NCBI GenBank assembly: GCA_965178125.1
Contig: OZ237744.1
Span: 1,302,001 to 1,364,732, forward strand
DNA length: 62,732 nucleotides
Direction: 5' to 3'
DNA from: Bilabrum cf. latius
Taxonomy: Eukaryota
Part shown: piece after piece, positions 4,327-62,293 of the stretch
Numbering within the stretch: position 1 is the first letter of the stretch
Layout: the number at the start of each line of letters is the position of its first letter
Notes under the pieces: generated by a model
Databases searched by the model: none
Told to the model about the DNA's origin: nothing
Seen by the model: only the letters and a program-made list of their open reading frames with translations
Position numbers and translations under genes: made by a program

Positions 4327-4546
4327 GGTGCTATACTTATAGCTTCAAGCTCTATATGTCCTGTCGAAACTCTACTATATGCCTTGACAAGCGGTATAAT
4401 GCTGGTTTAGCAGGTCTACCGATCCGTTGCGCAACGTCATATTCATGAACGTTCGTTTCACAACCATGATTAATAAGGTGCACTTTTGGCTTCGTGAGGG
4501 GAGCTCGGCGCTTGACCCGGCCACAGCATCGTTGTTGCCTTCCGTC

Positions 4547-16903: not shown

Positions 16904-16934
16904 TTTTAGCCGCATGAGATCCGTCTTTTGAGCA

Positions 16935-25976: not shown

Positions 25977-27401
25977 ATGGCGGTTGCTCCGCTAGACGAA
26001 ACAAGGTAGACCATTTTAAATAAAATATATAAATGCCTTAAGGAGAGATATGCGCTCAGCTCGTTCAGTTTGAAGATATTGGAGACAAGGATCCCGCTAG
26101 TGTTCGAAAAGGAAGACTATAGTCGAATGGCAGGGTATCTACACGTGCTTATCGGAGGAAAGCGCCCACCATGCAATCCGTATTAGTCGGGCTGCCCTGA
26201 AATCGTGCCAGGGCTGCGCTCCTAGCCGATCTGGTTTCCGAAGTAGTCAGGGAGCTCAAGGTTCGACTGGCTGAAGGACTTGCAAAGTCGTTGGAAGGAC
26301 ATATCAACAGAAGCAAAAGAAATATGGTCCGAACGTCATGGATTTCAAGAGTACAGAGCGCCAAAGTGGGCTGATGGGCCTAAGAGAAACGCAGATGGCA
26401 GTGCTGCAGGTGTGTCGTCCGGACGATGGGATGTGTTTTACATAGATTTGCACGACGTTGCCCCATTTATATAGGAAAACAGAAAGAAGGTACCCCACAC
26501 TTGCGCTGCGTTGGATGCCTGCATCCCGAAAGGGCGAGCATATGGCCACGCGATGTTCTCGGTCCTTCGAGCTGGCAGCCATGTCACACCACATCATGGA
26601 CCAACCAACAAGAAAATCAGAATATAGCTCCCTCTGGTTGTACCTGGCTACGCATAGGCTCAACTAAGACCGTGTCCGCCTGCTCCTGAGACTAGATCGG
26701 CCACAGGGCTAGCGCTGGCCCCACATGCGCTCGCATCGAGTGGGCCCGATGATCCAGAGAGCACCGCATCCACTGGCACTAGCACCAGCTCAGTATGGAA
26801 GGAGGTCGATTCAAAGACCGCTTTATAGCCTCGATCCGCCGAGATAAAGGCCGACGACCGTCTGGGTCCAAAGGATGGCTAGTGCGCCCTGCGAGCTGGG
26901 GACCAGATGCACGTGCTGCAGGAGGGGCGCGCCTTCGCTTTCGACGACTCGTTCGAGCACGAGGCGTGGAACATGGCACGCGAGAGGTGCACTGGCGCGG
27001 GGAAAGGAGCAGGTGCCTGCGTAGACGCAGCTACCGAGGCTGGGCCATGTCCCAGCTCAGCGCCGGAGTTGGCCGAGAGCTCGAGCACGACTGGGACGGG
27101 CCTGTCTGACGGCGATCGGCTTGTCCTGATCGTAGACGTGTGGCATCCAGACCTATCAGACGCAGAGGTGAAGCTGTTCAAGTTCTTGCAGGCCGCGCAA
27201 ATGAGGGCAGCGCGGGCCGCCTCCTCCCGGGGGCTCGTGAAGGGGTCCGATGATTTCGTCGGGCTCATCGCTGGGGCGGATCGATCCAGTGCGGGGGGCG
27301 GTCCGCCCGTGCAGGTGCAGGCGCAGGAGGCATCCGGGGCAGTATAGGCTGCATCTGGTGGGGCATCTGGGGGCACGCCTACAAGTGGGGGACTTGTGTA
27401 A
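25977..27401 (+). CDS. Aspartyl/asparaginyl beta-hydroxylase-domain 2OG-Fe(II) dioxygenase; about 10 in-frame TAG; ends in TAA
   Basis: PGLRS[TAG]PIW, FSVLRAGSHVTPHHGPTN, FDDSFEHEAWN, RLVLIVDVWHPDL in one frame. TAA at 27399-27401. Confidence 0.85.
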
Positions 27402-27585
27402 TGCTTCCAGATCAGATCCCATGTTGTTGTAGAGATTTAGTCAAGTGCCTGTAGCAGTGTGTGAAGCAGTGTGCCGTAGATCTACCGGACAGGAAGGACT
27501 CGGAATCGGGGCAGGCGCTGGACTCCATGTGTTTTCACTGTCGTGTGCCCCTACAGCACGCCTTCACGTGGTAGAAGGCGCCGGT

Positions 27586-30177
27586 ATGTCGTCCGCCGGT
27601 GGGGTTCACGTGTTGGTTCACAATGTGTCAGCAGCGCACGACTTTTTGCTCGCAATGCAGTCTGAACTATCTCGTGACGAAGCCAGGAAACTTCCTCCGG
27701 ACCTTGCTCGTCCGACGTTTCATGCCAATCATCCGATTGCTTCGAAGTGTCTGATTCACGCTCGGGAGCTCTTCGAATCCGACCAGTTTACAATCTTGAA
27801 GCATGTAACAGATGGTGGTGACAGGATCCCTGCTGGGTTTTCCCTGGGTGATGGCGGCCTAACAGTACCGTGGAAACACTTAAAGCTTAGGTGTAGTGAC
27901 CATCACAGCAAAGCTCTTAAAAAGCATGAGGGGGGTGCGGGTATGCAGTCGCACGGCACAGTCACAGCGTGCTTCTTTCCGCTCGTGGCACTCATCATTC
28001 CGGCTTGGATTAAGCTATGTCAAGATGCGGAAGATCGTGAGGCATAGCTGTAGGCCTCTCATCATGGCGTTTCAGGCGCAGCTGCAGCCGCGAAACGCCG
28101 CCGAGTCGAAGGTAGCGAATCGAATGAAACTGCCGCCGGCGGAATGAGCGGCTCCAAGCCTCGAACGGTTCTGATCCTGACTAGTGGTGCAGGGACTCCC
28201 AGAGATGGTAGCTCCGATGCAGATGGAAACTCTACCGCAGTCGCTGCTCTGCTTATCGAGCTTTTTGTTCGCGCCGCCTTTGAACAGGTGGAGGTGGTGC
28301 AGGCATCGAGCGGACCTGGAATCTTCCGCTTTGACCGCAACAACGAGTTCATTGAGGGGGTTCTTCGACCTGCGGTGGATGCTGAGAGGCATGAAGCTCT
28401 CTGTCGCTTCGGGGAGGACTGGCGGAAACGCTTTCGGTTGACACTGTCCTTGTCTGCTGGCGCCCCCGCCCGGGTAGCTGCCCTGAGCGCCAGTCTGCAG
28501 TCGTACCGGCCCAAGCTGCTGCACGCCGTGGAACTCAAGCATTTTTGGCACAGCGGGCAGCTGTCTCGCGGCGACCTCGAGTGCCACGAGTACTCGGTGG
28601 TGTCCTCGCACCCTCCTGTCAGAGCCGAGCTGCTACCTGAGCCACTGCGGTGGATGGTGTCGCAGCTGCGGGCGCACCACCGGCAGTTCACCGCTGTGCG
28701 GGAGGGCCCCTACCGCGGGCTTGCGAGCAACGACAGGCTCCCGAGGCATCCTCTAGCGGGGCGCGGGGCGGGCGATCCTATCGATGGGGACGGTTCCTGG
28801 CAGGACGAGTGGCAGTGGCAGAGCAACGACATGGCCACATTCTGGATGCGGAAGAGCAGGAAGCCGGTGCTGGCTGTGCTCTTGGTGCGCAAGCAGCGGG
28901 TAGCCAGCTCGAGATCAGCCGGTGCACTCTCAAGCAGCAGCTCTGTGGGATCCTCGAGGATGCAATCCCAGCCTGAGGGCAGCGCTGCAGGATCGCAGGA
29001 CAGCACCGGGAAGCTTCTTCCTCTCCTGCAACTGCCTGAGCCCGCGTCTGGAATCCAAGCCATCAGCGGGGAGCGCGGTGGGGTCGTGTTTCGTGAGGAC
29101 CCGTCGAGCGAGTACTTTGCGTACCGCGGCCTTAACATGGAGGTGAGCATGCCCACTGGGTCGCTTTGCTCAGAGCGGGCTGCCATCGCGAGCGCTCTTG
29201 CAAATGATCCATCGCTGCTGCGGAGCGAGTGCGTGGCAATCGCGGTACTGAGCTCTACGCTGCTTCCAGAGTGCTCCTGGAAGCATGCACCACATTCGGG
29301 CCCGCCCAAGAGCCAGAACAGCCGGACTGGAGCTGAATCTGAGTCGGCTTAGCTCGCTGGCGGGGCTGAGAAGCACGTCGGTGGCAGCAGCAGCAGCAGC
29401 AGTTGCGGTAGCAGCGGCGATCGTCAGACTAATGGACGGGCTGCAGCAGTCGTCAGCACCAGCACCGGAGCAGTGCCTCTGGCCGATGAGCGAACACAGC
29501 CCGTTCGGGCTGCGCACTCGGCGAGTGCTGGCCGCGGACAGGCCGAGTCCGAACAAGAGCTCGGCCCCGTGTGCGGCTCGCGGCGCGTTGGGGCCGTTCG
29601 CTCGCGGAAGCGAAGGTTCTCTGCCCTGCTGTCTTCGTTCGGAGTGCAGGCAGCCGAGGCCGCGCGCTCGCAACTGGAAAGGGGAGGGGATGGTGGTGCA
29701 GCCCCGGGGGTGCGGGGAACAGGTGCCGATCAAGGAGCACAGGGGGCAACAAGGCTGGGCTTGTCCCATCCCTGGGTCGAGACCGGGGCGGGGTCTAGAA
29801 GCAAGAGCGGGTCGGCCACGAACGGTGTCGTAACCGGTGCCAGCGGTGGAGACAGTCTGCGCCCCCCCGCCTCTCCCTCCAGGTCCGGCTCCTTTGGGTC
29901 GGCGCAAGAGGCGGGGGCCATACTGCAGCAGAGGCCGCACGCACCGCCTCCCAAGTGCCCTGAAGCTCCAGTAGTCTCGTCGTTGGAAGCCGCGCGGCTG
30001 GGACTGGGCAAGGGGCCAGACGGGGGCGACAAACTGCTCAACCCCCTAGCTCCGTGCGGATCGTGCACCGAGTGGCTCAGGAAGATTGCGGAGGCAAATC
30101 CAGAGTTCAAGACGCTGACTTTTTCTGATACCAAGGCAACACACGTGTACGTACGAGAGGTGGAGCCCGCGCTATGA
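27586..30177 (+). CDS. Cytidine deaminase-like Zn-binding protein; 3 in-frame TAG
   Basis: YRGLNMEVSMPTGSLCSERAAI and NPLAPCGSCTEWL lie in the same frame, separated by TAG 29350. Also TAG at 28045 and 28051. TGA stop. Start is approximate. Confidence 0.75.
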
Positions 30178-30315
30178 GAGGGATTAGCTACAGGAAGCGT
30201 TGTGTGGGCTAGTGCCACCACGCGGTCTTTTGGCAACGAAGGGAATCGAGATTAGCTCTGATCGAGATGCAAATACATACCTTCGGGTGATCCTCGCACG
30301 GTATGTTCCATTCAA

Positions 30316-31516
30316 TCACTTCTTCACGAGCTGCACGACGTCCTCATCGTGCAGCACGTGGTCCTTGCCCACCTTCTGTGGCTGGTGCTTGACGCTGGTG
30401 CCCCACACCCACGAGTACTTGAGCTGCGGCAAGATCGACTTGTGGATGCGCCCGCACAGCTGCTCGATTGTCGGGTACCTAGTGTGCATCACGATGGGCG
30501 CGCTGAAATCTGGAATGGTGCCCTTGGGCTTGGTGAATATCCGCGTCATCTTGCACCTCTCCCAGATCTGCTCGAGCAGCTCGTCGAAGTTCCACTCGTC
30601 CTTGGCAGAGATGGGCACGAAGTGGGGGTGGTCGCACAAGATCTTGAGCTCCTCCATCGAGACCTTGTCGATCTTGTTGAGCACGTAGATGCAGGGAATG
30701 TACACTCGGGAGCCCTCGATCACGTCGATCAGATCGTCCACGGTGGCGTCCGGAAACCGGATGTACACCTCGGCGTTCGGGATTCGGTACTCGGCGCAGA
30801 TAGCACGCACAATGTCCTAGTCGAGATTCTTCTAGGGATACAGCGACTTAACGAATATGCCGCCTTTCTCCTTTTTGGTCACTGTCATGTCTGGCTTGGC
30901 CTTGTTCAGCCGAATTCCGAAGCCCTCGAGCTCATGCTCGATCTTTTTCTTGAACGTGATCGGTTTGCTAGCATCCAGCACCAATAAAATAACGTTGCAT
31001 GTCCGTGCGGTACTGATTACCTGTCGCCCTCGCCCTTTGCCGTCCTTTGCTCCTTCGATGATCCCAGGCAAATCGAGGATTTGTAACTTGGCGCCCTTGT
31101 ATCTCAAATTGCCAGGAATGGCCGTCAGTGTGGTGAACTCATATCCGGCAGCCAACGATTCTGTCCCTGTTAATTTCGTGAGCAGCGTAGACTTGCCCAC
31201 GGACGGGAATCCAACCAATCCTACGCGTGTATCGCCTGATTTGCTAACGTCGAAGCCGTCGCCGGCCTTCCCCTTGCCACCTTTCGGGCCTGACACCAAC
31301 TCTGTCTTCAATTTTGCTAGCTTGGCCTTGAGTAGGCCCAAATGTTTGGCGGTTGCCTTGTTCTTCTGGGTCCTGTCCATCTGCAGTGTGCAAGGAGTGG
31401 CGTGAACAGTGCACGGGCAATACGAGCCAATTCGCGGCCAATCGTCTGACTTCTCAGTCGAAGAACATACTCCTTACCTCTCTCTCAATTTCTTTGATCT
31501 TCTCTGCTGTCGACAT
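30316..31516 (-). CDS. DRG1: Developmentally regulated GTP-binding protein (DRG); intron 31381-31477; TAG at 30832 and 30817
   Basis: [47 protein letters not shown] domain [12 protein letters not shown]1 versus DRG2 assignment is tentative. TGA stop. Confidence 0.92.
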
Positions 31517-31682
31517 GATGATAGCTCGTTTCGATGCGGCCAGACAGAAGAATTGTGGATTGGACCAAAGAAGTTCCGTTATGTGGCGCCGCGCGTCAAG
31601 GATAACCGGAACAAACGAAAGGCTTGCTGTGCCTGCCAGTCTCTCTCAGTCTGTCTCTCCACAATCATCTACAGTGCTACCA

Positions 31683-33809
31683 ATGTCCTATGGACAAGTA
31701 GTCGTTGACGGGGCGTGTTTACTTGCTCTGGTGCTTGCATGCTTGGCCATTGCTGTGTACTCTCACCACTACTTCCATGTATCTCGACGGCGGCCTGGCG
31801 AGCCGCCAATGGCCCCAACCAGCCTACCGTACGTTGGCCACGCCTTGTAGTTTGGCCGAGATGCGCAAGGATTCATGAAGCAACTGTCTTCTGAGTATAG
31901 AGGTGCGTTTACTCTCTTGCTTGCGGGCAACAGAACAACAATTGTACCAGTGTTTGACGCTGCGGCGATATACCGAGCCACCTCCCTGCAGTTTGATCCA
32001 ATAGCTGATGGTGTGTCGAGCCGAGCGTTCGGTGTGTCCTACCTTGATTTTGGATTAGATTAGGAGTGGGTGAACAGGAGCTATAGGAGGCACTTACAAG
32101 GCGCTGGGCTTCTGGGGTTGACGCAGGGGTTCCTTGAGGCGCTGCCAGCTGCCTTCAGTTCAACCTCGCACGAAGACGACACTGTGCCACTGTACTCTTT
32201 TATTTTGAACAGTATATTTATGGCTTCCTGCACTGCCCTGTTCGGGGCTAGCAGCGCAAGCACAAGCAACCTGCGGGCCTTTTGCGAGTTTGACGACTCC
32301 TTTCCTATTCTTGTTTCTGGAATCCCTGCAAGCCTGATGCCATCAGTCCAAAAAGCAAGGTAGTAGATTCGATCCATCTTCAGTACGTTGGACGACTCTG
32401 CACACGAGATGATGCACGAACGCGATGCTAAGCTGCGAGAACAGGCGCTTCGGGACAAGCAGTTGGGCGGGCACGGAGGAGGAGCAGGCGAGCAATCTCG
32501 GGAAGCCATGCAGTCAGAGATACTGTGGGCAGCAGAGGCAAACACCGTACCGGCCGCGTTTTGGTGCACCGCGTATATTCTCCGAGACGATCGAGCATAC
32601 GGAGTGCATCGGCTGGTGCGGCAGGAGGGACTTGAGGCGCTGGGCAGGGCCCTGCTGCGGCGGATGGAGCAGTGCCGCGCGGGATAGGGGAGTGGATGCG
32701 GCGATTCCAAAACAAGAAGCTCAGTTGGGAAATCTGAGCTGCTTGGGAAGAGCCCCGGCCCCGCGACAGCCGCAGCCGGAGACCTGCCCAGCGGCACGAC
32801 CAGCCCTGCTCCGAGCCTTGCGGCAGCTGATGCATCCGCCAGCAGGAACCCAGAGCAAGCTAATATCCCAGGCTAGCTGCCGCACTGGGTCCCTCGCAGC
32901 GTTCCCGACCTGCTGTCGCTGCTACAGCCCCGAGACCTGGACGGGCTGGCGGTCCTGGACTCTGCCATCACCGAGACGCTGCGGCTGACGGCTGCCAGCC
33001 TCACGGTCCGGGTGGCCACCAAGCCATGCACGCTAACGGTGGGCAAGGCGCGCAGAGAGCTGGCTCTAAATGCTCTGAAGGCCGCTGGCCTAGGCCCTGA
33101 GGACGCCCTCGAGGGGGAGATTCCGGAGGTGGAAAGCATCAAGATCCGCAAGGGGGACCACGTGGCGCTCTTCCCACCCATCCTGCACAGGGATCCTGCG
33201 GTGTTTCCCGACCCGGACGATTTTGTATTTGATCGACATGCAGACACCGAGAGAGTCTCGGCTATCCGTAGGCGGGCGATGGCCATGGATGGACAGACCG
33301 GCACGGGGAATGACGAGGAGGCCCAGAGCAGCGTGAGGGCTCTGGCAGCGGAGGAAGCAAAGGCGCTCCCGGCCAAGGCGGTCGAGAGGAAGCACCAGCT
33401 CCGGATCAGGCTGAAACCGGGCTGCGCTCCCAAAGACACGCGACCGGGGCAACAGAATTTCGTGCTTGCACCCGCGCCGAAGGTCGGTGGTGATAGCGTA
33501 GTAATGCCGTTTGGTGGAGGGAGATCCAAGTGCCCCGGCCGCATGTTCGCCAGGAACGAGATTCGGCTTGCAACTCTGTTGATGGTCATGCTCCAGCGAG
33601 CCGAGTTGGTCGCAGATAGCAAGGCAAGCACAGCTGGCTCTGCAAGTGGCGGGGCTTGGCCAGAGTTGGACAAGACGCGCGCTGGCCTTGGCGTGCTGCC
33701 ACCAGCAGATCGAGACGCTTTGCGAGTCAGACTCAAACCAGTGCCTGCTGCAGTGCTAGCCAAGGAGGCCCTTGCTGCAGTAGGGATGTATGAGCTTCAA
33801 ACGAATTGA
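31683..33809 (+). CDS. Cytochrome P450, CYP7/8/39-clan-like; 6 in-frame TAG
   Basis: TM anchor, RRPGEPP...LPYVGHAL[TAG]FG, I-helix LWAAEANTVPAAFW, K-helix LDSAITETLRL, heme motif PFGGGRSKCPG. TGA stop. Confidence 0.88.
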
Positions 33810-33829
33810 TTGATCAATGCAACTTGAAG

Positions 33830-34246
33830 TCACATGTACCCCGTATCACTTTCGAGCAGCACAGTTGCCGCCTTTTCCTCGACTAAATCCCACACAGACT
33901 TGTCGCTCTTGAATGAAAGGAATGCCTCAGACTTCTAGTGCACCTCCCCGAGAGCTGCCTCCGTTGAATACCTTTCGTAAATGAACACTTTGTCCTGATC
34001 TTCCCGGGCTTGCAGGATCTTGTACGACAGCGTTTCAACCTCGTGCTATTCACAGTGAGCTGCCAGTCTCTTGATCTTGCTCACAAATGCGCTTCCTGCG
34101 CCCTTCTTGCAGCGCACAGTCACCAGCAGCACAAACGCACTCATCTTGCTGCGCTTCTGGGCGGCCGCCCGGAACGCAATGCCTGCTGCGGCCACTCCTA
34201 CAGCGAATCCTGCAGCGCAAAGCCCGAATGCGTCGTACTTGCTCAT
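33830..34246 (-). CDS. ABM (antibiotic biosynthesis monooxygenase)/YgiN-like protein with N-terminal hydrophobic anchor; 2 in-frame TAG
   Basis: FVLLVTVRCKKG...HCE[TAG]HEVETLSY...DKVFIYERYSTEAALGEVH[TAG]KSEAF. TGA at 33830. Confidence 0.7.
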
Positions 34247-34430
34247 TGCAGCGAAAAGTCGTGATTGCTGACGCAGAGTCTAGGAAATGTACTAAAAGTA
34301 CACTATTGAGAATTCTTTTTTTAGAGTCTAGACTCGCGGCACTGCAGTGCAATTCAGCAATTGCATCATTTTTTCATGTCACTTTGCCAGATCTCAGCGT
34401 TTAGGTTCTGCCAGTGTCTGCGACAAAGTA

Positions 34431-34785
34431 TCACCGCTCCTTCCTCCTGCGCTTCTACGCGGGGCCTCCCGATCTTCGAGAGCTCCCCGCTCGCACGCGG
34501 CCAGCTTGGCCAGCGCTTGCCGATTCGCGTAACTTGCGCCTGGCAGCTGCTGCTACTTCTTTGTTCAGAGCCCGCCTCGCAGCCTTGGAATCCAACAAGG
34601 CCGCAGTGCTGCTGTCTGCCTGGCCACGCCTGCCCCTTCCGTCTCCCCGCTCCTGGCTACTGTCGCCGTCGCTCTCGTCATCGCTGCCATGCTCAGCTTC
34701 CAGTCCGGCTGCGAAGCTGTCATCGCTGGAATATCCCTGACCGTGCCCATCCCCATCCTCGTCCTCGTCCCCATCCCCATCCCCA

Positions 34786-34817
<32 letters not shown>

Positions 34818-36680
34818 TTCGTCTTCGTCATCCTCGTCATCCTCCCGCATGCCTTGCAACAGATCGAACGGATCCACCCCCGCCAACCCCCCTTCGCCAC
34901 CAAAAGACTCATCCCCGCCACCAACAATCACGTCTGCTTCCTCGTCCGATTCTCCCGTGCCCGCCCCTCCAAACCTCGACTCTTCCATCTCCCCTGACGA
35001 CCCAGCACCTCTGCTCGTGTGGGCCTCGGAGGTAGACACTGGAGGGGCAAACGCACCCAAAGACGCAGCCGCACCTTCCACCGCGCGCCCTAGAGCCCGC
35101 CGCTCTGCCGCCCCCGCCCTAGAAGCTGCTCCTTCTCCCACCTACCGCAGCCATACGGGTGTGGTCCACAGAGCGGCCATCCTGCGCGCATCCACCGCCA
35201 CCTCTGCGAGAGACCTTCGCATCGCGCGGCCTTCGAGCGCCCACAGCTCGTCATGGGTGGTGGCGTGCCCGGCCACCTGAGACACCGACAGGTCTCCCTT
35301 GGGTCCCAGGCCCGTCTTGCGACCAGCGGATCCCCTGCTATCACCCACACTCCCTCCACTTTCCTCGTCGCTGCCAGCGGCACCTTGCTGTTCCTGGTCT
35401 TCCCCTTCCGCTTCATGCCCCGCGCCCGCCCCGCTCTCCGCCTGCCGCCGCTTCACCCGGAGGAAGTAATCGAGCTCGTTCCTCGCAGCTGCCAGAGACT
35501 CCTGCCCCAGCAACTTGCCCAGCACCCCCTCCCCCTCAAACGCAGCCAGCACCTGCCTCTGCTTGAGGTACACGCGCCTCACCAGCTCGCCAGAGTCAGC
35601 CCTCCACACCCGCACGCACCGGTCCATCGTGGCGGCGCAGACCAGGGGCAACCGTGGGTGCACGCTGATGCTCTTCACGCTGCCTGCGGCCCCGTGATAC
35701 GCCCGACTGACCTTCATGGCGCGGAGATCCACCCGGGACACGTAGCCGGCGGCATCCCCCACGTACAGGCTGAGGCTGGCAGCATGGGCGCGGGATGCCG
35801 TCAAAGCAAAATCGCGAGCGTCGAGCACAAGCTCCTGCACAGGCTTCGCGCTGGCTCTTGCGTCCCAAAGTCTAACGTGCCTGTGCCTGCCGGTGGATGC
35901 TAGGACAGTGCCTGGGCGACCGAAAGCGGACGGGCCAACAGCACTGCCGGCACCGCTGCTACTGCTCGAAGTCGAGGCGGAAGCTGAAGATAGCGCCTCT
36001 GCTCTCTGTGAAGGTCTTAATCGTGCTCCTGGTGCGTCCACTTCACCATGTCTCTGCTTTGAGAGCAGACCCACCGGCAAGTCCGGCGAGGACTCGATGA
36101 ACTGAATGGACGAGGCCCACAAGTCTGACTCGGCCCCGTACTCATCATCTGCAGGCATGCTGCCCCGAAAAGTTACGGCGCAGCCTCGTTCAATATCGAA
36201 CACCTGTGGAGGTACATTTCTCCCTGCAGCTGCTGCCACTGCAGACATGGACGATCCCGCCAGGCAATCGATTCTGGCTGGCCCCTCCCCGTGATCGGGC
36301 AACCCAGGTGGAAGCAGCTCGCATGATACCGTAGCAGCCTCGCCCTCACTGCTAGGCTTACAAAGGGAGAAACATGCATTTCCACCAGACGAAACGGCTC
36401 CTGCCACCATCGATGCCGACGATGAGGCGAACGCAACTGCAACCGTGGGTTCTTTGGGCCCTATGATCACGTGCTGCGCACCAGCATCCCGAGAATTCCA
36501 TAGATTAACACGATTAGACTTGGTCGCCTGTACAATCTGGAGTGAGCCATCAGCAAGCATCCGGAACTCTGCAGCTCGCGGCGCATGTTCCTTCGAAAAG
36601 GCTCCCCCTCGAATGATGCGCTCTCTCTCCAAATCAACCGCTTTTCTCCAGCCGCACTCATCCAGCGTAATTATTCTCAT
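34431..36680 (-). CDS. WDR74: WDR74/Nsa1-like 60S biogenesis WD40 protein with acidic C-terminal extension; TAG at 35142 and 34455
   Basis: VRLWDARASAKPV, GAAGSVKSISVHPRLPLVCAATMDRCVRVW, RVYLKQR. K/R-rich end at TGA 34431. Confidence 0.75.
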
Positions 36681-36908
36681 ATTTTAAAAACTAACCAATT
36701 GAAGGAAGCTGCGGTAGTTCACCCAGGGAGCTTCGAAATGACCGCTGATGAACTGCAAGTGCTCTCGCCGCCGGATGGGCCGGAGCCAAAAATGTGCAGT
36801 GTGCTACGGATGGGTACGAACCGGATCTACATAGTCAATTGCGCTTTCAACTCGTCCATTAGGTCCCGTGCTTCAAGTGTCCAGCGGGGCCCCACCCGAC
36901 GGGACACA

Positions 36909-37991
36909 TCAGTGAGAAGTCTTCATTGGCCCGCCGGAAGCGAACACGAAAGGGCTAGAGCTGCCTCCCTTGCCTTGCCCTGCAGCCCGGGGAGCAGGCC
37001 TGCCGGCCCCGCGGGCGCGGGCCCCGCCAGCCCCCGCTCGGGCCGACGACTTGGTGGGAGCCGCTCCCCCCGCAGCCACCCAGCCCTCGTCGTGCCCCAC
37101 CTCCAGGCTGGCATCGCCCAGCTCGGCAGCGAGCCGGGACAGCACTGCGTCTGCTTCGGCAGCAGCAGCAGCGCCCAGCGATGCAGCAGTAACCGGACCG
37201 CCGGTGCGTGCCACAAGAGGGCGCGCCGGGGGGGCGGACGAGGACGAGGCGGCCGCAGCGGTGCTCGCGTCGGAATCAATTGTGACCTTCTTCGACTGCG
37301 TCGCCTCGCCTTCCTTCTCAGGGGCCTCAAAGCCCGGCACAGCGCCTGCCACTGCCTTCGGGACATGCGTCCGTCCCTTGCGAGACTTGCTGGCTCCGCC
37401 GCTCGCCGCGCCCCGAGCACCTCCAGACTTCCCCTTGCCCTTGGAAGACTTCCCACTCTTCATCGGGTCCTCAGACAGCTTTTCCTCGAGCCAAGCCGCA
37501 GCCTTGCTGTCAAGACTTTCGCATTCCCGCAGCAGCGTCCTGCGCTGCGCTCTCTGCGCCTCCTGGCCTGCCAGCTGGAGCTTGTCGAGGGTTACCGACG
37601 CATTGTCCACAAAAGCCTTGACAAATTGGCGCTTCTTCTGGGCTTTATCGCCATCTTTTGGGATCGGGAGGCCCGTTTCTTTCAACTTCTTTGCACCTCC
37701 CCCGCTCTTCTTGCCGCGGCTTCGCTTGGCTTTCCGGCCCTCGATCCATCTGGTCAGCAACGAGCTGACCCGTTCGAGTTCCAGCTCGAACGCTCGGAGA
37801 ACTCGAGTTGCTTCTTTCAGTGCTTCCTTCTTCAATTCTTCTTCGGTGGGACCTGCAGCAGGTCTGGGACTTGACGCGGCCTTGCGAGGCGCCGCCGCGG
37901 CTGCCGCCGGCGAAGCACTCGGGGCAGGAGCAGGAGAGTCCTGCACATGCTGCTCCTATTGATTTGTCTCACCACCAAGGATGTTTCCCAT
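36909..37991 (-). CDS. Hypothetical protein with possible N-myristoylation (MGNILG) and BAG-like helical segment; 1 in-frame TAG
   Basis: MGNILGGETNQ[TAG]EQ continues into track ORF 36909. TLDKLQLAGQEAQRAQRRTLLRECESL resembles the BAG helix 2/3 pattern. TGA stop. Confidence 0.5.
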
Positions 37992-38167
37992 GCTGCGATG
38001 GGTCCCAAACCTTGATTGGTAGGGCAGCAGAGACTGCTTGCTGGCGTGCGGCCGGGGATCCCGTATTCGGTATTCATCTTCACGTTTTGACTCGTGCTGC
38101 CACCCGTTGGTTGCACGCTCCAAAGGTATTTGGCCTGAATACAACGTATCCATTATCAAGGTAGAAG

Positions 38168-40600
38168 ATGTCCACTGTGATAGACGCTTTTTTGTCACCT
38201 CAGAATGAGATCAGACGCAAGGTATCGCGCTCTCGGCGGCGAAGCTCTCGCGGAAATCGAGCAGGCTTGCGCGCCCTGCTCTCACCAAACCTGGCTCCAG
38301 TTGGACATAGCTCCCAGAAACTGTAAGTTTATGCATTCTACTCAAGATACGCACGAATTTCCTGGTACGACTAGCCTAATCGGCTCGTATTTTCCCGGCG
38401 GCGCAGTAGTGGCAACCGCAGTAGACGCGGCAGAACCCCGCAATCGGCCACTGCTTCTAGGCTGAGCCTGGACAGATCGCCATCACCGGTTCAAATAAAG
38501 CGTAGGTAGGTGCTCCGGAACATCGACAGGAATCATCGACCCAACTCGACCAGAAAGTCACTCCAATTGTCTGGAACTGCAACGATTGCGAGACCAGCTG
38601 GTAGCCTTCTGCAGTCGCAACCATTGAGGCGAATGGTGTCACCTCGGCTTAAGACTTGCTATAAAAAGAAAGAAGGGGCGGGCAAGGAATCCATACGGTC
38701 GTAGGAAGGTCGCCTAGTGCGTAGTCCGGAGGCGGCTGTGGAGCAGCAGTCAAGCAAGAAGGTGGCTGGCACGGCTGCACAGGGGTCTTCTTCGCCTATA
38801 GATGCGTCCAATTCGTGCAGGAGGGTCATAAATACACCTACACCTGAGACCGGCCATTTTCCAAGCAAGGACGACCACCAATGCGCGCGTCAGGTCGCGA
38901 GTAAGGAGCCTGTCATGTCGTCTGCCCCACACGCAGAGACTCTCCGAAGTGCTCTGCCGAACCCCTTTGTAGAGGCTGCCTTGGGATTCTCTAGCTAGAG
39001 CAGAATAGTGCGCATGAATGACACGCCAAACGCTCGAGAAAGCTCCAGCCCGCATCCGGTCGCTGAAGCTGCAGCTGGCCAGGGGGGTGTGCAGAATGGC
39101 ACCGTCCGCCCAACTGGTGGTGCAGCTGCCGTCGATCCATCAGCGTGGGTAACACCCAACTCCCTAGCCGATGAACTCCTCCAAGATATTGCAGGGGCAA
39201 GCGCTGGGAACCGAGAGGGGGGCGGTGAGGACCAGCCGCAGATTGCGAGAGACCAGGGCAGCTCGCGCTTCGGCGTCATGCAGAGACTTGCTGCCCGTCT
39301 GCAGACTGCTTTGAAGCAAACACCCAGCGGGTCTGACAGTGGCAGCAAGCACAAGCAGCACCCGACTCCTGTGCCCCTGGCAGCAGGAGTCACGACTGAA
39401 GCCGCCACCCGGGCCCTGGAGGGCATGCAACTGCTGCACCGATGGGGCTCCGAGCAGGAGGCAGCAGCCCATGCAGCGCAGCGCAAGCTGGACTTAGCAA
39501 GAAAATAGGCATGTGCCTTTTAGAGCGAGTGCGACTCGCTGCGCAAGGAGCGCGGGTCTCTGGCATCCCGGCTTTTTGCTACCCAGCTGGACCTGACTGA
39601 GGCCAGGGCGAGGGTCACCGGGCTCGCTGCCGCGGCGCGTCTGGCGCACGAATAGGAACAGCGAATGCGGGCGATCAAGCACCGATGCAGAGCTGCGCAG
39701 CAGGTGGCTGCGACCTCGCGGCTTCCACTGGCAGCTGGTGCGAGGAAGAAGGAAGCAGGCACACAGACTGCGTCTGGAACTGCAGCAGCTGGTGCGAGGA
39801 AGAAGGAAGCAGGCACACAGACTGCGTCTGGAACTGCAGCAGCCGTTGCATTGGAGCACGCAAGCACACAGACTGCCGCTGGTTCTGCACTACCATCAAA
39901 GCTGTGCTCGCAGGAATGCGTTGGAGTTCACAGCATTCGCCCTTCCCAGGCCGTGGTGTTGCGCCCAGTAGCTTTATCCCCTAGCTCCTCCCGAAGCCCG
40001 GTAGCTTCATCCCCTAGCTCCTCCCGAAGCCCTGCTCCACCAGGAGCCGGCAGTGGCAGCGGCTCGCCACGACTGGCAGGCCACAGCGCGCAGATGGGCA
40101 TGATGCGCGTTTCGTTCTCGCCAGCCTCTGTCTACGAGGAAACCGACCATCCGGGGCCAGTACCAGCAGCAGCAAAGCCAACAGTGATTCCGGTCTACTT
40201 CAAGTCGCCGCCCGGCAGCAGTGGTTGCCCCCCCGCCCCTGAGATCCGGAAGCTCCCTAGCCTCACGCGCCCCGATGAGCTCACTGATGATGCTTGGGCC
40301 AACTGCTACGGGTCGCATGTTCCAGCGGATGCGACTGGGGCATACCGCCGGGCCCCTTGGTTGCAGACAGCCAGCAAGCGTGCGGCTGGTAGCTCTCGTG
40401 GCAGGCGCACGGCTGTCTCCATTGGACCAGCTCGACGCGCGCAATTTGGCGGTGGTGTTGGATCTCGAAGGGGCCATGTCACGCTCGCGCATCAAGCTAG
40501 CCTTCGCGTTGGCCCTCGGAAGCGGGCTGTCTCGCGCAAGCCCAGTCCGCTGGGCAGGCCAGCTAGCAAGGCTGGCAAAACGGGTCATCAGAGCAGCTGA
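38168..40600 (+). CDS. Coiled-coil/disordered protein with repeated TQT motifs; probable intron from 38323 (acceptor uncertain); about 6 in-frame TAG
   Basis: Track ORFs 38510, 38717, 39008 and 39665 share a frame and are separated only by TAG. The 5' structure is inferred from GTAAGT at 38323. TGA stop. Confidence 0.5.
39731..39843 (+). repeat. Exact 54-bp tandem duplication (encodes AAGARKKEAGTQTASGTA x2)
   Basis: Copies start at 39731 and 39785. Confidence 0.95.
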
Positions 40601-40869
40601 AGGCAAGAATTAGGTGGTGAATGTCATAAGTACAGTTTGAACTCTTCGAAACACTCTATGCTTTGCCGCCGACGCCTGTTCACACAGACACCCAAGAATA
40701 CACACATTTCTGCGCAATCGCTACACCTGCAGTGCACGATGGCGCCGATGTACCCCGCAACCACAGCCGCAAGAGCGTATGAGCGACACCAGCAGGGCCG
40801 GTAGCCTCTCGCAAGAGCTTTCATTGTCCGTCATTCAGCAGCTGGATTGCTGCTGCGCATTCCCTGCCG

Positions 40870-43776
40870 TCACGTCGCCGGTGCGTCGATGAGGCCGTGC
40901 GCGCGCGCCAACCAGTAGGGTGCGATGAACACCCCGCCGTCCATCTCTGTCTGGCCGTTGCACCCATCCAGATCGTGAGGGTTGCCGTTCCAGCGTCCCT
41001 AGCACCGTTCGTCCGCGGGCAGCACGCCCATCGACTCGGTGCCGTGCCGGGCGTCTCTGTTCTCCTCCGGGTCCAGCCAGATGTCCAAGCGGTCGCTGTT
41101 CTGCACGGGCCACTGCAGGGGATCCAGCGGCCACTGGCGGAGGTTGGCGGCGGCAGAGCGGGCGAGGAAGGACATCTCGGAGGCATCGACCCCGGCGGGG
41201 GGGATGGTGCAGCCGCCGCCGGGCTAGGGGCGCTGCGAGCCTGGCTGTACCTTGGTGCAGGTGCCGTCCAGGGCCACGCTGGAGAAGATGGCAGCCCACA
41301 GATCCGGGCGGGTGGGAGCCACAAAGTCCCAGGTGCGTCGCAGCCCCATGAGTGTCAAGCTCTCCGGCGTGGGCAAGTCTGCGTCCCCGGTCACTGCGGC
41401 CCCGAGCTTGGTGAGGCTCTTGGAGTGCAGGTAGGCGTAGAAGGGCAGGAAGGTCAGCTCGTCATCCGAGTAGTTGTCATCCGACGGGGCCTCGATCTTC
41501 AGGTTGACGATGTTGCTGCCGTAGCCAGCGCCGCCCTCGGATACAGGCACAAACAGCTTCTTCCAGCCAGACAGGATCACGGCAGTTCCAGCCGTGTCGT
41601 TGAGCTCCAAGGCGGCGTCGTAGGCGTTGGCCAGCAGCGCTGCTGCTTCCAGCGAGCTCACGCCGCGGTTGTCGCTCCAGGTGCGGTTGTCATTGATATA
41701 CTCAGGGTTCCAATGGCCCCAACGCGTCGGCTTCCCATCGAAATCCTTGAGAGTGAAGTTGTTCGAGACAATATACACTGCAGTGTTCCGCAGAAGCTCA
41801 GCTGCTCGAGTCCGGACGTGAGCGGGAATCTACCGCTCAGGTGACAGACCCTCTGCGGCACGAGCAGCAGCGCTGACAGCTGCGAATGCGAATGTGTGTC
41901 CGACCACCTCATCACTGCTGGTGGTTCCCTTCCAGGTCCACCCGGGCATCGACGTGCTGTTGTGCCATGCGCTATCTCCTGCGGGGGGGGGCGTGCTGGG
42001 GTCCAGGCAAGAGCGGGCCATGAGGCCCTTGATGCCTGTCACGTTGTTGAGCAGCTCCATGCCGCTAAAGTAGCGCTCCACCCGCTCCACCGGGGTCATG
42101 AGCGTGTGTTCATTGGGCACGTCTGCCTGGCCAAGCACAGTCTGCCACAGAGCTCCGGCCAGCACCACGGACGTCCAAAGGCCCTGGTTGTCGCTTGGGC
42201 CCTGCACTGCTCCACTCAGGTCTCCAAAGCTGGGCAGATCACTCTCGCCAACCATGCCGTGCCGATTGTGCCGTGCATCGTTGATGTTCCAGGTCCTAGT
42301 GGCCTTCTCTGCTAGGGTCCAACGCTGCGGATCGACCACTGCCACACCGAAAGTCACCGGGGATGCGCCCTGCTCATACTCCGAGGAAATCTAGGACGTA
42401 GTGACGGCAACGAACATGTCTCCCTGGTTGACACCCTGTCCGATCGCCAGGTCGGAGACCCCATCGGAGGGCAGCCATCGCCCGTGCCTCAGCCACTTCC
42501 ACGGCCAGCTGCCTGCGGGTCGAGCCACCCCGCCCGGGGAGCCTAGCGCCCCCTCCGGACCTGTCTCGACGCTCATGCTATCCACACTGCGCTAGTGACC
42601 CCCCGCTGCTGCCTCTCCACTCGGCGACGAGCCCGGACTTGCGAGTGCGAGCCCAGTGGTGGTGCCTGCGGCGATGCGGGTGGAGCACTGCCCTGCTGCA
42701 TCCAGGCCGCGTTGAGCTGCCACGCTCGTGGTGTTTCCCATCGGTAATCCAGCCCACCCTGGCACACGCACGACTGTGCCATTGGCCCACCTGACGTTCA
42801 GCACCGATCTGGTGCCCACGACGAGTGCACCGGCGAACTCGTCGGCCTTGCCATCTCCCGAACATGCAGAGAGAGACCGGTCAAACGGCGGAACGAATGC
42901 CAGGGCGGTCACTTCGTTGTCATATACCCCACCTGTTCCTGTTGATACCACTGATACCCACTCAAACCCCAACACGGTCGGGGCAGGCGAGGCGCCCGTC
43001 TCGTTGGTGCCTGAACGGACGTAGTACATGCGATCCACACCACCGGCAGCGACCATTTGCTGCGTTGGTCCCTCTTGCAGGGGGCTGCAGGCCACCGCGT
43101 TAAATCCGTAGCCACCCACAACCCGCGATGGTCCTGCTGAGGACGATCCTGCCATCCAGAGGCCATCGCTTGATGCGATCCAAACTACCCCGCTATTTGC
43201 TGGGTCGATTTGCGCATCCTGCACATTGCCCGAGCCGACCTCATGCTTCCCGATAAATGAACAAGTTCCCACGATGCTGCTCCCAGACTATTTGACAGTG
43301 CAGCTCGACTGGGCCAACACGGATCCCTGCTGCGAGTTGCAGGCGGAAGCAATGGCAACTGTGCCATCACTAGATGCAGCTACATCGCTTTTACAGCCCA
43401 CGCCGATTTGCATCGGGCCAATATCAATGTGTGACCACTGTAGCTGCAGCAACCAGTCCTGTGGGGCTGGAGACAGAAGCGGAGAATCAGCACCAGAATT
43501 GGATGGCGGTACGGCTGCTGCGAAGAGCTGCTGGTCATCGAAACCAACGACGATCAGGCCTCGCCAATCGTCGGGTTGGCCAGACACAGCACGGCTAGGA
43601 AGCGATTCAATGAACGCTGGCCTGCTTCTCGTTGGAAGGTCGCCCCAAGCAGTCACTGTCACTTGGGAATCCTGTTGTGCAGCAAAAATACTGCTTGAAA
43701 GCTATTCAAATGCAGCGTCACGCAAGGCGTTTGTGGCAAGTAAACAACTTATATGAATGGCTAGCTAGTACTTCAT
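40870..43776 (-). CDS. About 970-aa secreted protein with propeller-like N-terminal half and a bacterial-type C-terminal domain; 8 in-frame TAG
   Basis: Signal-like MKY[TAG]LAIHISCLLATNA; SDNQGLWTS, WKGTTSSDEVVGH, DFDGKPTRWGHWNPE, NYSDDEL, LPADER...WNGNP...PYWLAR. Single frame, TGA at 40870. Confidence 0.7.
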
Positions 43777-44227
43777 GTCCGCGAGGAAGCTGCGCGCAGT
43801 GGACGACAAAAAGATCTGCGATGTGCCGTCCGGGAGTGCACGCTACAACCGCGGGGTGTGCAGGTCCAGGGTGCAGGTCACCAGGTGACCGTCACCTGCA
43901 GGTCACCTCACGGCAGGACAAGACACGGGCACCGGCACAGAGAACTGTAGTGCCACGTCAATGGGGGGACACAATGGGAGGATTGCGGGCTCCAGATGCA
44001 AGGCACAAGGGAGGCATGAGTGGCGGCGGGCTGCGCGGCCAGCAGCGTCACAGCGCGAACAGTAGGCCGATAGGCGGGTGGATGAATCCATTGTGGAGGA
44101 AGCCCATTGGGTCCGCGGGGCTGTTGGCAACTTATTCGTAGCATGCCCCCAAATCAAAAATGTTGATTCTGGGTTGCCTGGCTGCGTTCGTCTCCCTCAC
44201 ACAGGGTGCACAATAAATGGAATGAAT

Positions 44228-45154
44228 TCACTTCTGCTTCGTACGACTACCAGCACGTGGTCGAGCCTGCTTTAAGCTATTGTTGGCTCTCGCGCCTCTA
44301 TCCTCCCCCTGCAATCCCTCGGTCTACTCAAGCTGCGCGTCGTGCACGCTCAGGTGATTCACAAAAGTGTACACCGAAAATACAACGAAGAGCCTCCTGA
44401 ACCACACAAACTGCGACCAATGGGCAGACATGGCCTTCCAAGAGTGCATTGGGTCGCTGTGCATGCACACCATGCCACTGCCGCAACACCACCACCACGC
44501 CAATGTCCACAACCCGGCGATACTTCCGCAGAACTTGGTAATCAAATTCGTACTGCTTAATGTAACAAGTTTAGCCACACCATTACCATGCTTTCGTTGG
44601 AGCTAGGCGGACGCCCGGCGGACACCCCTGTGGGTGTCTCTGTGGTTCGGGTGCCCACTAACCCCCCAGTCATCAAAGGTTAACAGCCAAGCAGGAGCAC
44701 CTCGCGATCCGATATATTCGTAAATGGCCTTAGCCACGGCATTATCATTCCATACACGGGCGAATCCATCCTGCAGCTCACCAACATCGAGAACCTTGAC
44801 ACTGTCTCCGCGAATGCCGAGCGATGCTGCACTCTTGCCAATTTCCTCCGTTCGCTTCTGCCCAAGGCCATCAGCTCCTCCGTTTGAAAGACACAGAATC
44901 CGAACATCCACCCTGTTGGATACTAGCCAATCAATCGCTGGAACGAAAAACATCGCCTCGTCGTCTGGGTGGGCAATTACAAGTAGGACATATCCTCCCG
45001 GCAGCGCTCGAATTGATCCACACATATACTGTTCAGCTATTTCGTATACAAATAGAAGGCACCAGCATACCGCAAGGGCTCCGCTAAACAGGAAAACAGC
45101 CAGGACACAATAGCTAGCCGAACTTGCTAGCCTTGCAGCAAGCGATTCCTCCAT
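44228..45154 (-). CDS. PIGL: GlcNAc-PI de-N-acetylase (PIG-L); TAG at 44603 and 44324
   Basis: AHPDDEAMFF, TFDDWGVSGHPNH. The conserved C-terminal AMSAHWSQFVWFRRLFVVFS lies beyond TAG 44603. TGA at 44228. Confidence 0.9.
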
Positions 45155-45310
45155 AAAAGCCGGAACACGAGAGGGGAATCGCCCTCTACGTAACACAACC
45201 TTGATTGGGGCGGTTCAGCTGAACAGCTTGTTGCTGTGCGCCGGAAAAGTACATTCCGGAGCGAAAAAGCCAAGAGCAAGTTGAGACTCTAACAATCCAC
45301 CGAGTCAGTA

Positions 45311-46357
45311 ATGTTTCGATTTGCCTCTCGGGACGGGCTAAGGAGGGCATAGCAAGTATTTGCACCGCGTAAGCCGCCAACGCTTGCCCGCTTTGCCTCA
45401 TGACAGCTTCTCCGAAAACTGCTGGTTGGCGTCCACGTCTAATCTCCCGGTGCAGGTGCGTGCAGGTCTTTGTTCGTAAGGGTTGTCCCAACCCCAAATC
45501 CAGACTCTTTAAAATTTGTGACAGAGGGAGAGCAGATCCTGACTGAGGACCAGGGAACGGGAAGAGTAAGTGGCCGGCGCCCTCGGTGGTCCGCACGTCA
45601 GCGCATCAAGCTAGAGTTTTAGGACCGTTGAAGCACAGCCAGGCACAACTTAATATTTTTATATTGCAGCACTTCAATAGCATCGCTAAGAGCAAGGGGA
45701 GCCCGCTGGTGCAGGAGCTTCTGAAGTTACCGCACGTGCAGGGTGTGTTTCTTGGGCCAGACTTTGTCACTGTTAATAAGAGCGAAGAGGTAGAATGGGA
45801 AGTGAGCTCATGAACTACACGCATCATCGCATGAGTGACGCTGTCCCTCCAGCCGTGTCTACGCATCTTTGCCAAGTCCATTTGTCCCGCAGCCGCTGCG
45901 AGCCGCCGTGCTGCAGCTCATCATGGAGGCTGTCGCTTCCGAGCAGCCGATCCTCCAAGAACTTGAATCCGAACCAGACTCTACAGAGGTGCTGGACTCT
46001 GACTCCGAGGTGGTTGCCATGATAAAGGAGTTGCTGGAAGCAAGAATCCGGCCAGCCGTGCAGGAGGATGGCGGGGACATTTTCTTTGTCTCGTACGACG
46101 AAGGGTCCGGGCTGGTGCAGCTCAGAATGGCGGGATCATGCGTGGGTTGCCCTTCATCGACGGCCACCCTGCACCAGGGTGTGGAGAACATGCTCAAGCA
46201 CTACATCCCAGAGGTCACGAGGATCGAGCAGGTGGACGAGGAGGGGGCCATCCTGTCGGGGGGGGAGCCTGAGCCCCCACAAAGCATGGAGGAGAAGCTA
46301 GCTGCAGCCGGTGTGCCGGGCGAACCGAGTGGTGGCCAGCCAGGGGGGCGAATGTAA
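45311..46357 (+). CDS. NFU1: Mitochondrial NFU1 Fe-S carrier; introns 45369-45455, 45566-45669, 45802-45892; ends in TAA
   Basis: Transit peptide contains one [45 protein letters not shown]. Confidence 0.9.
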
Positions 46358-46634
46358 TTCCCTCGCTCGGCCGGGGCTAGGTAATCGAGCCAATACTTTG
46401 ACGCTCTTTTTGGATTGCGTGAATGCCGCAAGATTATCGTTGTGAACAGCACCACGGGTAGTCACGCTGCTTCCCTGCTGCAATACTGCACAACAGCAAC
46501 TAGCTCGCTGTTTCGTGAATGTTCCCAGCGGGGGGATCTGATATTTTGTGGACTCAACTCAAAATCGCACGGGGCACGAGAATGTACCGTGATGATTGCT
46601 CGAAAATCAAGATTCGCATCTCACAACACCTAGC

Positions 46635-49681: not shown

Positions 49682-50383
49682 ATGGCGTCCATACCTGGAA
49701 CTCGTTTAAAGTCTGTCATATCCTCTGTGGCCAGGAGGATGGCCCCTAAGTATGCTCTAGGTTTAATGTAAGTCATGCACCAAGTACCTCCTCAGACTAC
49801 CAGCCTATTCCTGCAAAACCCTGTGTTCTAAGTGTATTTCCCACCCCATGTATGTCATTCATGCAGGTTCAAACACACAGTGCCAGTCGTTTTGGTGCAG
49901 CAGGTTGATGAGCTTGGGCACAGGGGGATGTAGCTCGACGTCGCTGCAGGCTTTGCAAGAAATCACCTCTTTCCCAAGAAACTAGCCGTGTATGCCACCG
50001 ATGATCACATACAGAAATTTTCTGTCGAGCTTTCTCCGGAACAGTTTGAACGAAACGCTGCTCTGAGACGGAAGCGGCAGCTGCGATAGCAGGCTGCAAA
50101 GGCAAAGCTCGACTTCGGCCAAGCCACAGAGGACGGACAGAAGCTGTATGGCAGAGTGGCTTCGCAGGATTTTTCCGAAGCGCTGTACAAAGTAACGGGG
50201 CTGCGTGTTCAATCTGACAAGTTTGAGATCCTTTGGGACGAAAGTCGACCGGACGGCATTGAAGAGGCAACCGAGCGTGAGGAGCCCGGGGAATCCATAA
50301 CGAGGACAGGATCTTACGTCTTGCGCGTGGAGATAGAGGACGGCCTCTTTGTTAAGATACCGGCAGGCGTACGGTCCGTGTGA
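49682..50383 (+). CDS. MRPL9: Mitochondrial ribosomal protein bL9; intron 49768-49866; 2 in-frame TAG
   Basis: VVLVQQVDELGHRGM[TAG]LDVAAGFARNHLFPKKLAVYAT and GQKLYGRV. Ends TGA, immediately followed by TAA. Confidence 0.8.
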
Positions 50384-50496
50384 TAAGTGTCTCGGCGTTA
50401 CCCGCAGTTCCTGTTGCAACTGGCAAGTTTTCGTTCGGCATTTGCATTTTCTACTCATGTAGGGTTTGGTTATCAATAATTACCCTAAGAATAATC

Positions 50497-61430: not shown

Positions 61431-61595
61431 GCTTAGGCCGCCCACCATCCACCGCCCCTTCTGCGCATCTCCCCAACCATCTACTCGGCGTGGGCCGGCC
61501 CATCCACCGCACCCTCTGCGCATCTCCCAAACCACCCACTCGGCGTGGGCCGGCCCATCCACCGCACCGTCTACGCATCTCCCAAACCACCCACT
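61431..61595 (+). repeat. 55-bp telomere-adjacent tandem repeat, about 3 copies
   Basis: CGGCGTGGGCCGGCCCATCCACCGCACC...CCCAAACCACCCACT starts at 61486 and 61541, with a degenerate copy upstream. Confidence 0.85.
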
Positions 61596-61596
61596 T

Positions 61597-62232: not shown

Positions 62233-62293
62233 TATCTAATATAAAGTCAGGGACAGGGTCGGGGAAAAAATATTTTCATCTTCATTTTTTTGT

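Follow-up and report, generated by a model that had tools for sequence, protein, structure and literature searches.

Which of the three canonical termination codons still end proteins in Bilabrum cf. latius is the question raised by the stretch of DNA considered here (GenBank assembly GCA_965178125.1, contig OZ237744.1, positions 1,302,001 to 1,364,732 of the forward strand). This stretch, hereafter called the window, spans 62.7 kb (62,732 nucleotides) and has a GC content of about 60%. It is densely packed with genes, of which about 30 were identified by Pfam and homology, and its long open reading frames (ORFs) stay open only when TAG is read through. An original prediction, made from the letters alone, held that UAG and UAA are decoupled in this organism and that its code resembles NCBI translation table 15. 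By our analysis the code is very probably the same one, with UAG read as Gln on the cytoplasmic ribosomes, UGA as the usual terminator and UAA as a terminator that is rare in this genome. The table-15-like code is borne out by TAG at Gln columns, by the exclusion of TAA from reading frames and by TAA at gene ends.

Gene models were ORFs backed by Pfam or homology, complemented between 27000 and 46900 by GT..AG joints from spliced contigs; a codon-bias exon model settled on a few strongly biased genes and was not used. In 28 coding stretches comprising 16,982 codons, TAG occurs in frame 98 times, whereas neither TAA nor TGA occurs at all. The same codons include 170 CAA and 509 CAG, in agreement with the earlier observation that in-frame TAA is missing although CAA is common. 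TAG accounts for about 13% of the Gln codons in the window, and many of the in-frame TAG codons lie inside Pfam-supported domains. Reading the same DNA in the +1 and +2 frames yields 64 and 60 TAA, 274 and 337 TGA, and 124 and 115 TAG, respectively. The absence of TAA in frame, against 64 and 60 occurrences off frame, indicates that TAA is kept out of the reading frame no less strictly than TGA, which is not the case for TAG. If in-frame TAA tracked TAG, 32.7 (pooled CAA/CAG ratio) or 43.0 (per-gene NAA/NAG ratios) would be expected, and the probability of finding none when 33 are expected is about 6e-15. The A/G ratios of two-fold codons are 0.33 for CAA/CAG, 0.33 for GAA/GAG and 0.26 for AAA/AAG.

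The distribution of TAG among genes can also be described. The most codon-biased genes (GC content at third codon positions of 0.79-0.87; the mtHSP70, armadillo, kinase and CCT genes at 373-6174 and 55887-57968) contain no TAG, and weakly biased genes, such as those for ASPH and the CHAT-domain protein, hold up to 10-13. The absence of TAG from the most biased genes fits a minor tRNA, although the same genes also avoid CAA.

Because the ORFs had been bounded by either TAA or TGA, the missing in-frame TAA could be circular, and all 31 frames were therefore re-extended with TGA as the only stop. No gene was split by TAA in this way. The TAA codons that were added, and the introns that contain some of them, are as follows:

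14432, 20426, 36686 and 54249: added TAA upstream of the first ATG
38324 and 31476: added TAA in introns backed by contig joints
38323-38406, plus strand: intron of 84 nt, GTAAGT..AG, containing the apparent in-frame TAA at 38324 (joint in run X5, and sequence)
31381-31477, minus strand: intron of the DRG GTPase gene, 97 nt, GTAAGG..CAG, containing the TAA at 31476 (joint in runs X5 and X6)
49769 and 49829: added TAA in the predicted bL9 intron
49768-49866, plus strand: predicted bL9 intron, 99 nt, GTAAGT..CAG, containing both of these TAA (sequence; the L9 domain begins after the intron)
60037: added TAA before a pyrimidine tract and AG, counted as intronic
27399, 46355 and 46382: added TAA at 3' ends

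The identity of the amino acid inserted at UAG was addressed by scoring ten TAG columns that are filled to 50% or more in three homologue alignments. Summed over these columns, Gln reaches +13.8 bits, followed by Cys as the next best residue (-9.1), Glu (-14.2) and Ala (-19.0). Leu is rare in the TAG columns and falls outside the best eight residues, and no Leu codon stands opposite TAG in ortholog pairs. Single positions are exemplified by the Asp/Asn beta-hydroxylase (ASPH), a CYP7-like P450 and a long ORF on the minus strand:

25977-27401, plus strand: ASPH-like coding region, in which 10 TAG lie in frame and whose stop is TAA (27399-27401; Pfam PF05118, E 2e-30; PDB and homologue alignments)
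26184-26186, plus strand: in-frame TAG of ASPH at a conserved Gln column (Q in 37 of 41 homologues)
31848-31850, plus strand: in-frame TAG of the CYP7-like P450, 'alXfg' against 'alQfg' of human CYP7A1 (PDB alignment)
43702-43704, minus strand: in-frame TAG of the 1010-codon ORF 40870-43902, in a column with Q in 64 and E in 29 of 101 filled rows

In the PDB alignment with human ASPH, the ASPH sequence 'lrsXpiW' stands against 'lkaQpwW'. The TAG codons of the DRG GTPase fall in variable columns and are uninformative on the residue, and the PIG-L protein found no match in a comparison with PDB.

That TAG is present in mature messages is suggested by contigs of three public runs, which contain short GT..AG joints of 84-105 nt across 27000-46900. 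RNA-like contigs match the DNA with 0 other letters over TAG-bearing genes at 27549-31380, 31604-33834 and 40638-43789, the last of which covers the 1010-codon ORF; this argues against editing. Together with a telomere-type TTAGGG array near the end of the window, the spliced joints and the exact contig matches point to the end of a eukaryotic nuclear chromosome and to TAG being present in spliced transcripts.

Scanning metagenome contigs with the Rab GDI protein retrieved a syntenic relative, represented by L001 (2.9 kb) and L002 (11 kb of a 17-kb contig). Its GC content is 51%, its GDI is 88% identical to that of the window, and its gene order, GDI, orf211, orf389, bL9, NFU2, orf659, NFU1 and PIG-L, equals that at 45.4-53.8 kb of the window. 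Two window genes of this block are of particular use for the comparison:

46596-48575, plus strand: ORF of 659 codons (orf659), 3 TAG, ending in TGA
52536-53858, minus strand: main exon of Rab GDI, ending in TGA, with 1 TAG at 53757 that is also TAG in the relative

Six coding stretches of the relative (2,155 codons) contain 20 TAG and no TAA, with CAA and CAG occurring 30 and 45 times, a ratio of 0.67. With 13.3 TAA expected, the probability of finding none is 1.6e-6. Fourteen TAG codons of the relative have conserved flanks, and they face CAG 8 times, CAA and GAG twice each, and CGC and GCG once each in the window. The bL9 pairs include a window TAG opposite CAG, TAG opposite TAG, and a window CAG opposite TAG of the relative. 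TAG positions common to both species are found in GDI ('SQ-TAG-LY') and in bL9 ('LR-TAG-QAAKAK'); these shared positions and the same code in the relative show that UAG was reassigned before the two species diverged. As far as sequence comparison can tell, the reading of UAG as a sense codon that fits Gln best is well supported.

At the C-terminus of orf211, the relative reads LDG-TAG-TGA (L002, 1925-1930) and the window LDG-TGA (52367-52369). The TAG-TGA pair of the relative may be what is left of an ancestral stop at TAG, with TGA as a backup.

The second half of the question concerns UAA. As the original prediction had it, UGA is the dominant and UAA a rare stop: TGA closes 27 of the 29 window genes, and the remaining two, ASPH and NFU1, end in TAA at exactly the predicted positions 27399 and 46355. 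The tandem stop of bL9 was likewise found where expected. The features concerned are:

50381-50386, plus strand: bL9 stop TGA directly followed by TAA
45456-46357, plus strand: NFU1, exons 45456-45565, 45670-45801 and 45893-46357, with a further exon upstream of 45368 (joints in 3 runs; Pfam NifU, E 2e-26)
46355-46357, plus strand: TAA stop of NFU1 (the relative has GGRM-TAA at the same place)
46406-46452: ends of spliced RNA-like contigs of NFU1, at 46452 and 46447 (runs X5 and X6, one study) and at 46406 (run X8, another study)

The TAA of ASPH lies 16 codons past the last column common to 41 homologues, which reach their own ends within about 0-25 residues. The next in-frame TGA, at 27462, is just 21 codons further on, so the ASPH case alone is weak, and the transcript ends of ASPH are not visible among the contig pieces listed. 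NFU1 is more informative. Once its exons are spliced, a single open frame ends with GGRM-TAA in both species, and similarity is lost right after the TAA. A second in-frame TAA follows 9 codons downstream (46382-46384), and the next in-frame TGA, at 46676-46678, is 107 codons away, within the start region of the next gene. The spliced contigs end 50-95 nt past the TAA and 220-270 nt ahead of that TGA, and a DNA contig of run X1 continues beyond them to 46557. In the relative, TAA closes 3 of the 7 visible genes (GDI, the orf659 orthologue and NFU1), and TGA ends orf389, NFU2, bL9 and orf211. Its GDI reaches the TAA 10 residues beyond the C-terminus of the window GDI, and its orf659 orthologue has TAA exactly where the window has TGA, with a TGA of its own after one more codon. 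The prediction had placed both TAA ends in non-conserved tails, so that UAA as a stop rested mainly on the absence of in-frame TAA. This holds for the ASPH tail, but not for NFU1 with its conserved GGRM-TAA, and the TAA ends of the relative add further cases. The two window ends, the ends in the relative, the conserved NFU1 end and the contig ends indicate that UAA ends genes here. TAA at 3 of 7 ends at a GC content of 51%, compared with 2 of 29 in the window, fits UAA being an ordinary terminator that is used in step with base composition.

A simple mechanism could account for this pattern. UAG would be decoded by a tRNA-Gln with the anticodon CUA, which pairs with UAG and not with UAA, and eRF1 would have lost recognition of UAG while keeping that of UAA and UGA. 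UAA would be a rare stop only because the genome is GC-rich, and the GC-poorer relative would for this reason use it far more. Panek et al. 2017 (PMC5304391) argue, for Iotanema and the rhizarian exLh, that a decoder which reads UAG and ignores UAA must carry the anticodon CUA and that tRNA-Gln(CUG) is its simplest source. The eRF1 of Iotanema carries T32G, a substitution at a position concerned with the third base. ARAGORN and Rfam revealed no tRNA genes in the window, L001 or L002, and Pfam scans of the window no eRF1 gene.

Several other explanations of the same data have to be weighed against this code. Most eukaryotic reassignments of UAR codons are coupled, as the original prediction held and as PMC5304391 agrees, and at a GC content of about 60% it is conceivable that UAA and UAG both encode Gln and that TAA is merely scarce. 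Codons ending in A are, however, not avoided (CAA/CAG and GAA/GAG both 0.33), and a coupled code predicts 33-43 in-frame TAA where none is seen. The relative, at 51% GC and with a CAA/CAG ratio of 0.67, also lacks all of its 13.3 expected TAA, and TAA is located at gene ends defined by homology, which brings this explanation close to refutation and leaves it hardly any probability. Slightly less remote, although still very unlikely, is the explanation that UAA is unassigned or avoided, neither decoded nor an efficient terminator, and that ORFs ending in TAA are accidental. The low share of TAA among the window's gene ends and the possible extension of ASPH by 21 codons to the TGA at 27462 would suit such a codon. 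It fails to explain why the relative has TAA at 3 of 7 ends, one of them exactly where the window has TGA, why the NFU1 TAA is kept across species when the sequence after it is not, why the NFU1 contigs end ahead of any TGA, and why tandem TGA-TAA and TAA...TAA arrangements are present.

Two further explanations concern UAG rather than UAA. In an ambiguous code of the Condylostoma type, UAG would be a sense codon inside genes and a terminator near the 3' ends of mRNAs. The LDG-TAG-TGA end of orf211 in the relative, compared with LDG-TGA in the window, could be read in this way, as could the ASPH TAG that precedes its TAA by 17 codons, close to where homologues end. Yet TAG is not depleted before stops, as the last 30 codons of 28 genes contain 5 TAG with 4.9 expected (a small sample of 28-29 genes); the C-terminal sequence GNPFG(E/D)EPAL after a late TAG of orf389 is conserved in the relative; and no gene requires TAG as its stop. 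We consider such ambiguity marginally less likely even than an unassigned UAA, although rare use of TAG as a stop could escape a sample of this size. UAG might also stand for another amino acid (Glu, Leu, Lys, Tyr or Ala, for example), an idea that draws on UAG = Leu in a rhizarian and some ciliates (PMC5304391, PMC11687900), on the two window TAG codons opposite Ala in the relative and on some E-rich columns. The column sums (Q +13.8, E -14.2, A -19.0, L outside the best eight) and the 10 of 14 TAG codons of the relative that face Gln codons in the window speak against it, and its probability is as low as that of an unassigned UAA.

Although UAG as Gln, with UGA and UAA as terminators, remains by far the most probable code, a number of observations weigh against it or narrow its basis. 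Of six window TAG codons that align to the relative at conserved flanks, two stand opposite Ala, one opposite Ser, two opposite TAG and only one opposite Gln; the sample is small, yet this is not the outcome that Gln at TAG would best predict. The TAG at residue 457 of ASPH (27345-27347) aligns to a near-C-terminal column in which 30 of 38 homologues have Trp and 6 have Phe; as this TAG lies in a low-complexity tail, the match is probably an alignment artefact. TAA ends just 2 of 29 window genes, one of them in the non-conserved ASPH tail, and the contig ends of NFU1 are no more than a weak hint of an mRNA end. The relative is known from two metagenome contigs alone. The three runs are only guessed to be RNA, for which their spliced joints argue, and outside 27000-46900 the gene models rest on ORFs and homology, without RNA support. 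Finally, the TAA at 9043, which lies outside the coordinates given in the original prediction, is the only added TAA with an in-frame ATG upstream (8959). It would be explained either by a start at 9208 or by the following feature:

8998-9051, plus strand: possible intron of 54 nt, GT..AG, around the TAA at 9043 (sequence)

A comparable case is the single TAA located 10 codons ahead of the first ATG of orf211 in the relative, which was taken as part of the 5' untranslated region. These two upstream TAA codons are explained only by assumed starts or introns.

The genes of the window, several of which have been mentioned above, comprise:

mitochondrial-type HSP70 (mtHSP70), an armadillo-repeat protein, a protein kinase, an amine oxidase, a CTLH protein and a CHAT-domain protein
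Asp/Asn beta-hydroxylase (ASPH), a CDA-like deaminase, a DRG GTPase, a CYP7-like P450, an ABM monooxygenase and PIG-L
two NifU/NFU proteins, mitoribosomal bL9, Rab GDI, a thioredoxin-fold protein, a CCT subunit and WD40 proteins

Close to its end, the window carries a telomere-type repeat:

61597-62233, plus strand: TTAGGG array of 106 perfect repeats

This array does not occupy the extreme end of the window. A 55-nt repeat (2.7 copies) lies before it, and a 155-nt tandem repeat (2.8 copies) fills the remainder of the window behind it (region 61445-62732). The array may be interstitial or part of a subtelomeric structure, or it may mark an assembly join. Compact spacing is seen in two convergent gene pairs: the CTLH gene and orf1162 end 31 nt apart (16901-16937), and the deaminase and DRG genes 138 nt apart (30175-30318). 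One RNA-like contig spans both members of the latter pair, and their 3' untranslated regions therefore probably overlap. In the WD-repeat gene, an acidic coding repeat rich in GAC and GAG (Asp, Glu and Gly codons) is present at 34783-34830. This simple repeat, which is found in many other places, shows contig depths of up to 2000, and in each of the four runs numerous contigs break off there. DNA or transcript contigs almost identical to the window turn up in runs X1-X8 under four coded organism labels from four studies (shares 1.00, 0.76 and 0.56, 0.47, 0.41). Either the organism often accompanies or contaminates other cultures, or the labels may mean nearly the same thing.

To which lineage the window belongs was approached by protein comparisons. 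The closest database proteins are fragments of 96-99% identity, some of them truncated where the window has TAG. The relative follows at 86-88%, after which the identity drops to about 50% for GDI. Named best matches are mostly stramenopiles, i.e., diatoms, brown algae, pelagophytes and oomycetes. In a tree of mtHSP70 with 45 rows (the window protein, 18 named and 26 unnamed sequences, picked from the 120 best matches), the lineage forms a clade with one EukProt transcriptome and environmental sequences. This clade is sister to brown algae and diatoms (SH-aLRT 99) and apart from red algae and plants. The GDI tree did not resolve the supergroup; it puts the lineage into a clade of 27 rows, the sole named member of which is one EukProt transcriptome (prefix GECG). 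The lineage is probably related to stramenopiles, a placement that is tentative because only best matches were sampled for these sequence trees. When viral contigs were scanned with mtHSP70, the best match reached 68% identity, which indicates that no close viral or mis-binned relative is among them. The mitoribosomal gene, the TTAGGG telomeres, the high GC content and UAG being read as Gln rather than Leu make it unlikely that this is any of the known UAG-only lineages. Within the literature covered, which was incomplete for subscription papers and supplements, no nuclear UAG change in stramenopiles was found.

The decoupling of UAG from UAA is not unprecedented, and codes that reassign UAG only have been in print since 2017. 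According to Panek et al. 2017 (PMC5304391) and McGowan et al. 2024 (PMC11687900), UAG-only reassignment with UAA as a stop was first shown in that year for Iotanema (Gln) and the rhizarian exLh (Leu), and later in phyllopharyngean ciliates, twice with Gln and once with Leu. Nuclear codes in which UAG and UAA are decoupled are still few, with one fornicate and one rhizarian besides some phyllopharyngean ciliates (PMC5304391, PMC11687900). The same code as in the window, with UAG alone reassigned to Gln and UAA kept as terminator, is used by Iotanema spirale (Metamonada: Fornicata), for which the same tRNA-Gln(CUA) and an altered eRF1 were predicted (PMC5304391). The two systems differ in other respects. 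In Iotanema UAA is the primary stop, whereas here it is UGA (27 of 29). Iotanema is an anaerobe known from its transcriptome (PMC5304391), whereas the window encodes bL9, NFU1 and mtHSP70 and has a GC content of about 60% and TTAGGG telomeres. Iotanema is a fornicate, and the mtHSP70 tree places the present lineage on the side of brown algae and diatoms.

Among ciliates, Hartmannula sinica and Trochilia petrani show the same change of UAG alone to Gln, with UAG widely used as a sense codon, but UAA is their firmly preferred stop (PMC11687900), different from its rarity here. The telomere repeat and the composition of the window appear unlike those of ciliate macronuclei. In the rhizarian exLh and three phyllopharyngean ciliates from TARA data, UAG is likewise decoupled from UAA, which serves as a stop, but the inserted residue is Leu (PMC5304391, PMC11687900), for which the window offers no support. 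The codes of the table 6 type, reported from many ciliates, hexamitin diplomonads, some ulvophytes, oxymonads and an aphelid, share UAG = Gln and UGA as the main or only stop with the window (PMC5304391). UAA is a sense codon in these organisms, whereas here it is excluded from reading frames and ends genes.

The code itself is therefore rare but already known; what differs here is the lineage, from which such a code seems not to have been reported, and the use of UGA rather than UAA as the main terminator. One practical consequence concerns public databases. Proteins of this organism and its relatives (P0001, P0170 and P0216) are fragments that end at TAG, which indicates that gene calling with the standard code cuts these genes into pieces. 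A second aspect concerns viruses. All confirmed isolates of giant viruses come from hosts with the standard code, according to PMC13524828, and a cellular lineage with the present code would be a possible host for giant viruses in which TAG encodes Gln, although nothing here links the two. It is possible, if somewhat short of probable, that a whole clade of aerobic, probably stramenopile-related protists, from which no change of the nuclear code had been reported, acquired a UAG-only Gln code independently, that it is the first such clade with UGA as the main terminator, and that its members are candidate hosts for these viruses. As its assembly extends to a telomere and is accompanied by contigs of spliced transcripts and by a syntenic relative, the lineage would make a direct search for tRNA-Gln(CUA) and the eRF1 change possible, and it offers two genomes that can be compared where GC content moves stop codon use from UGA towards UAA.

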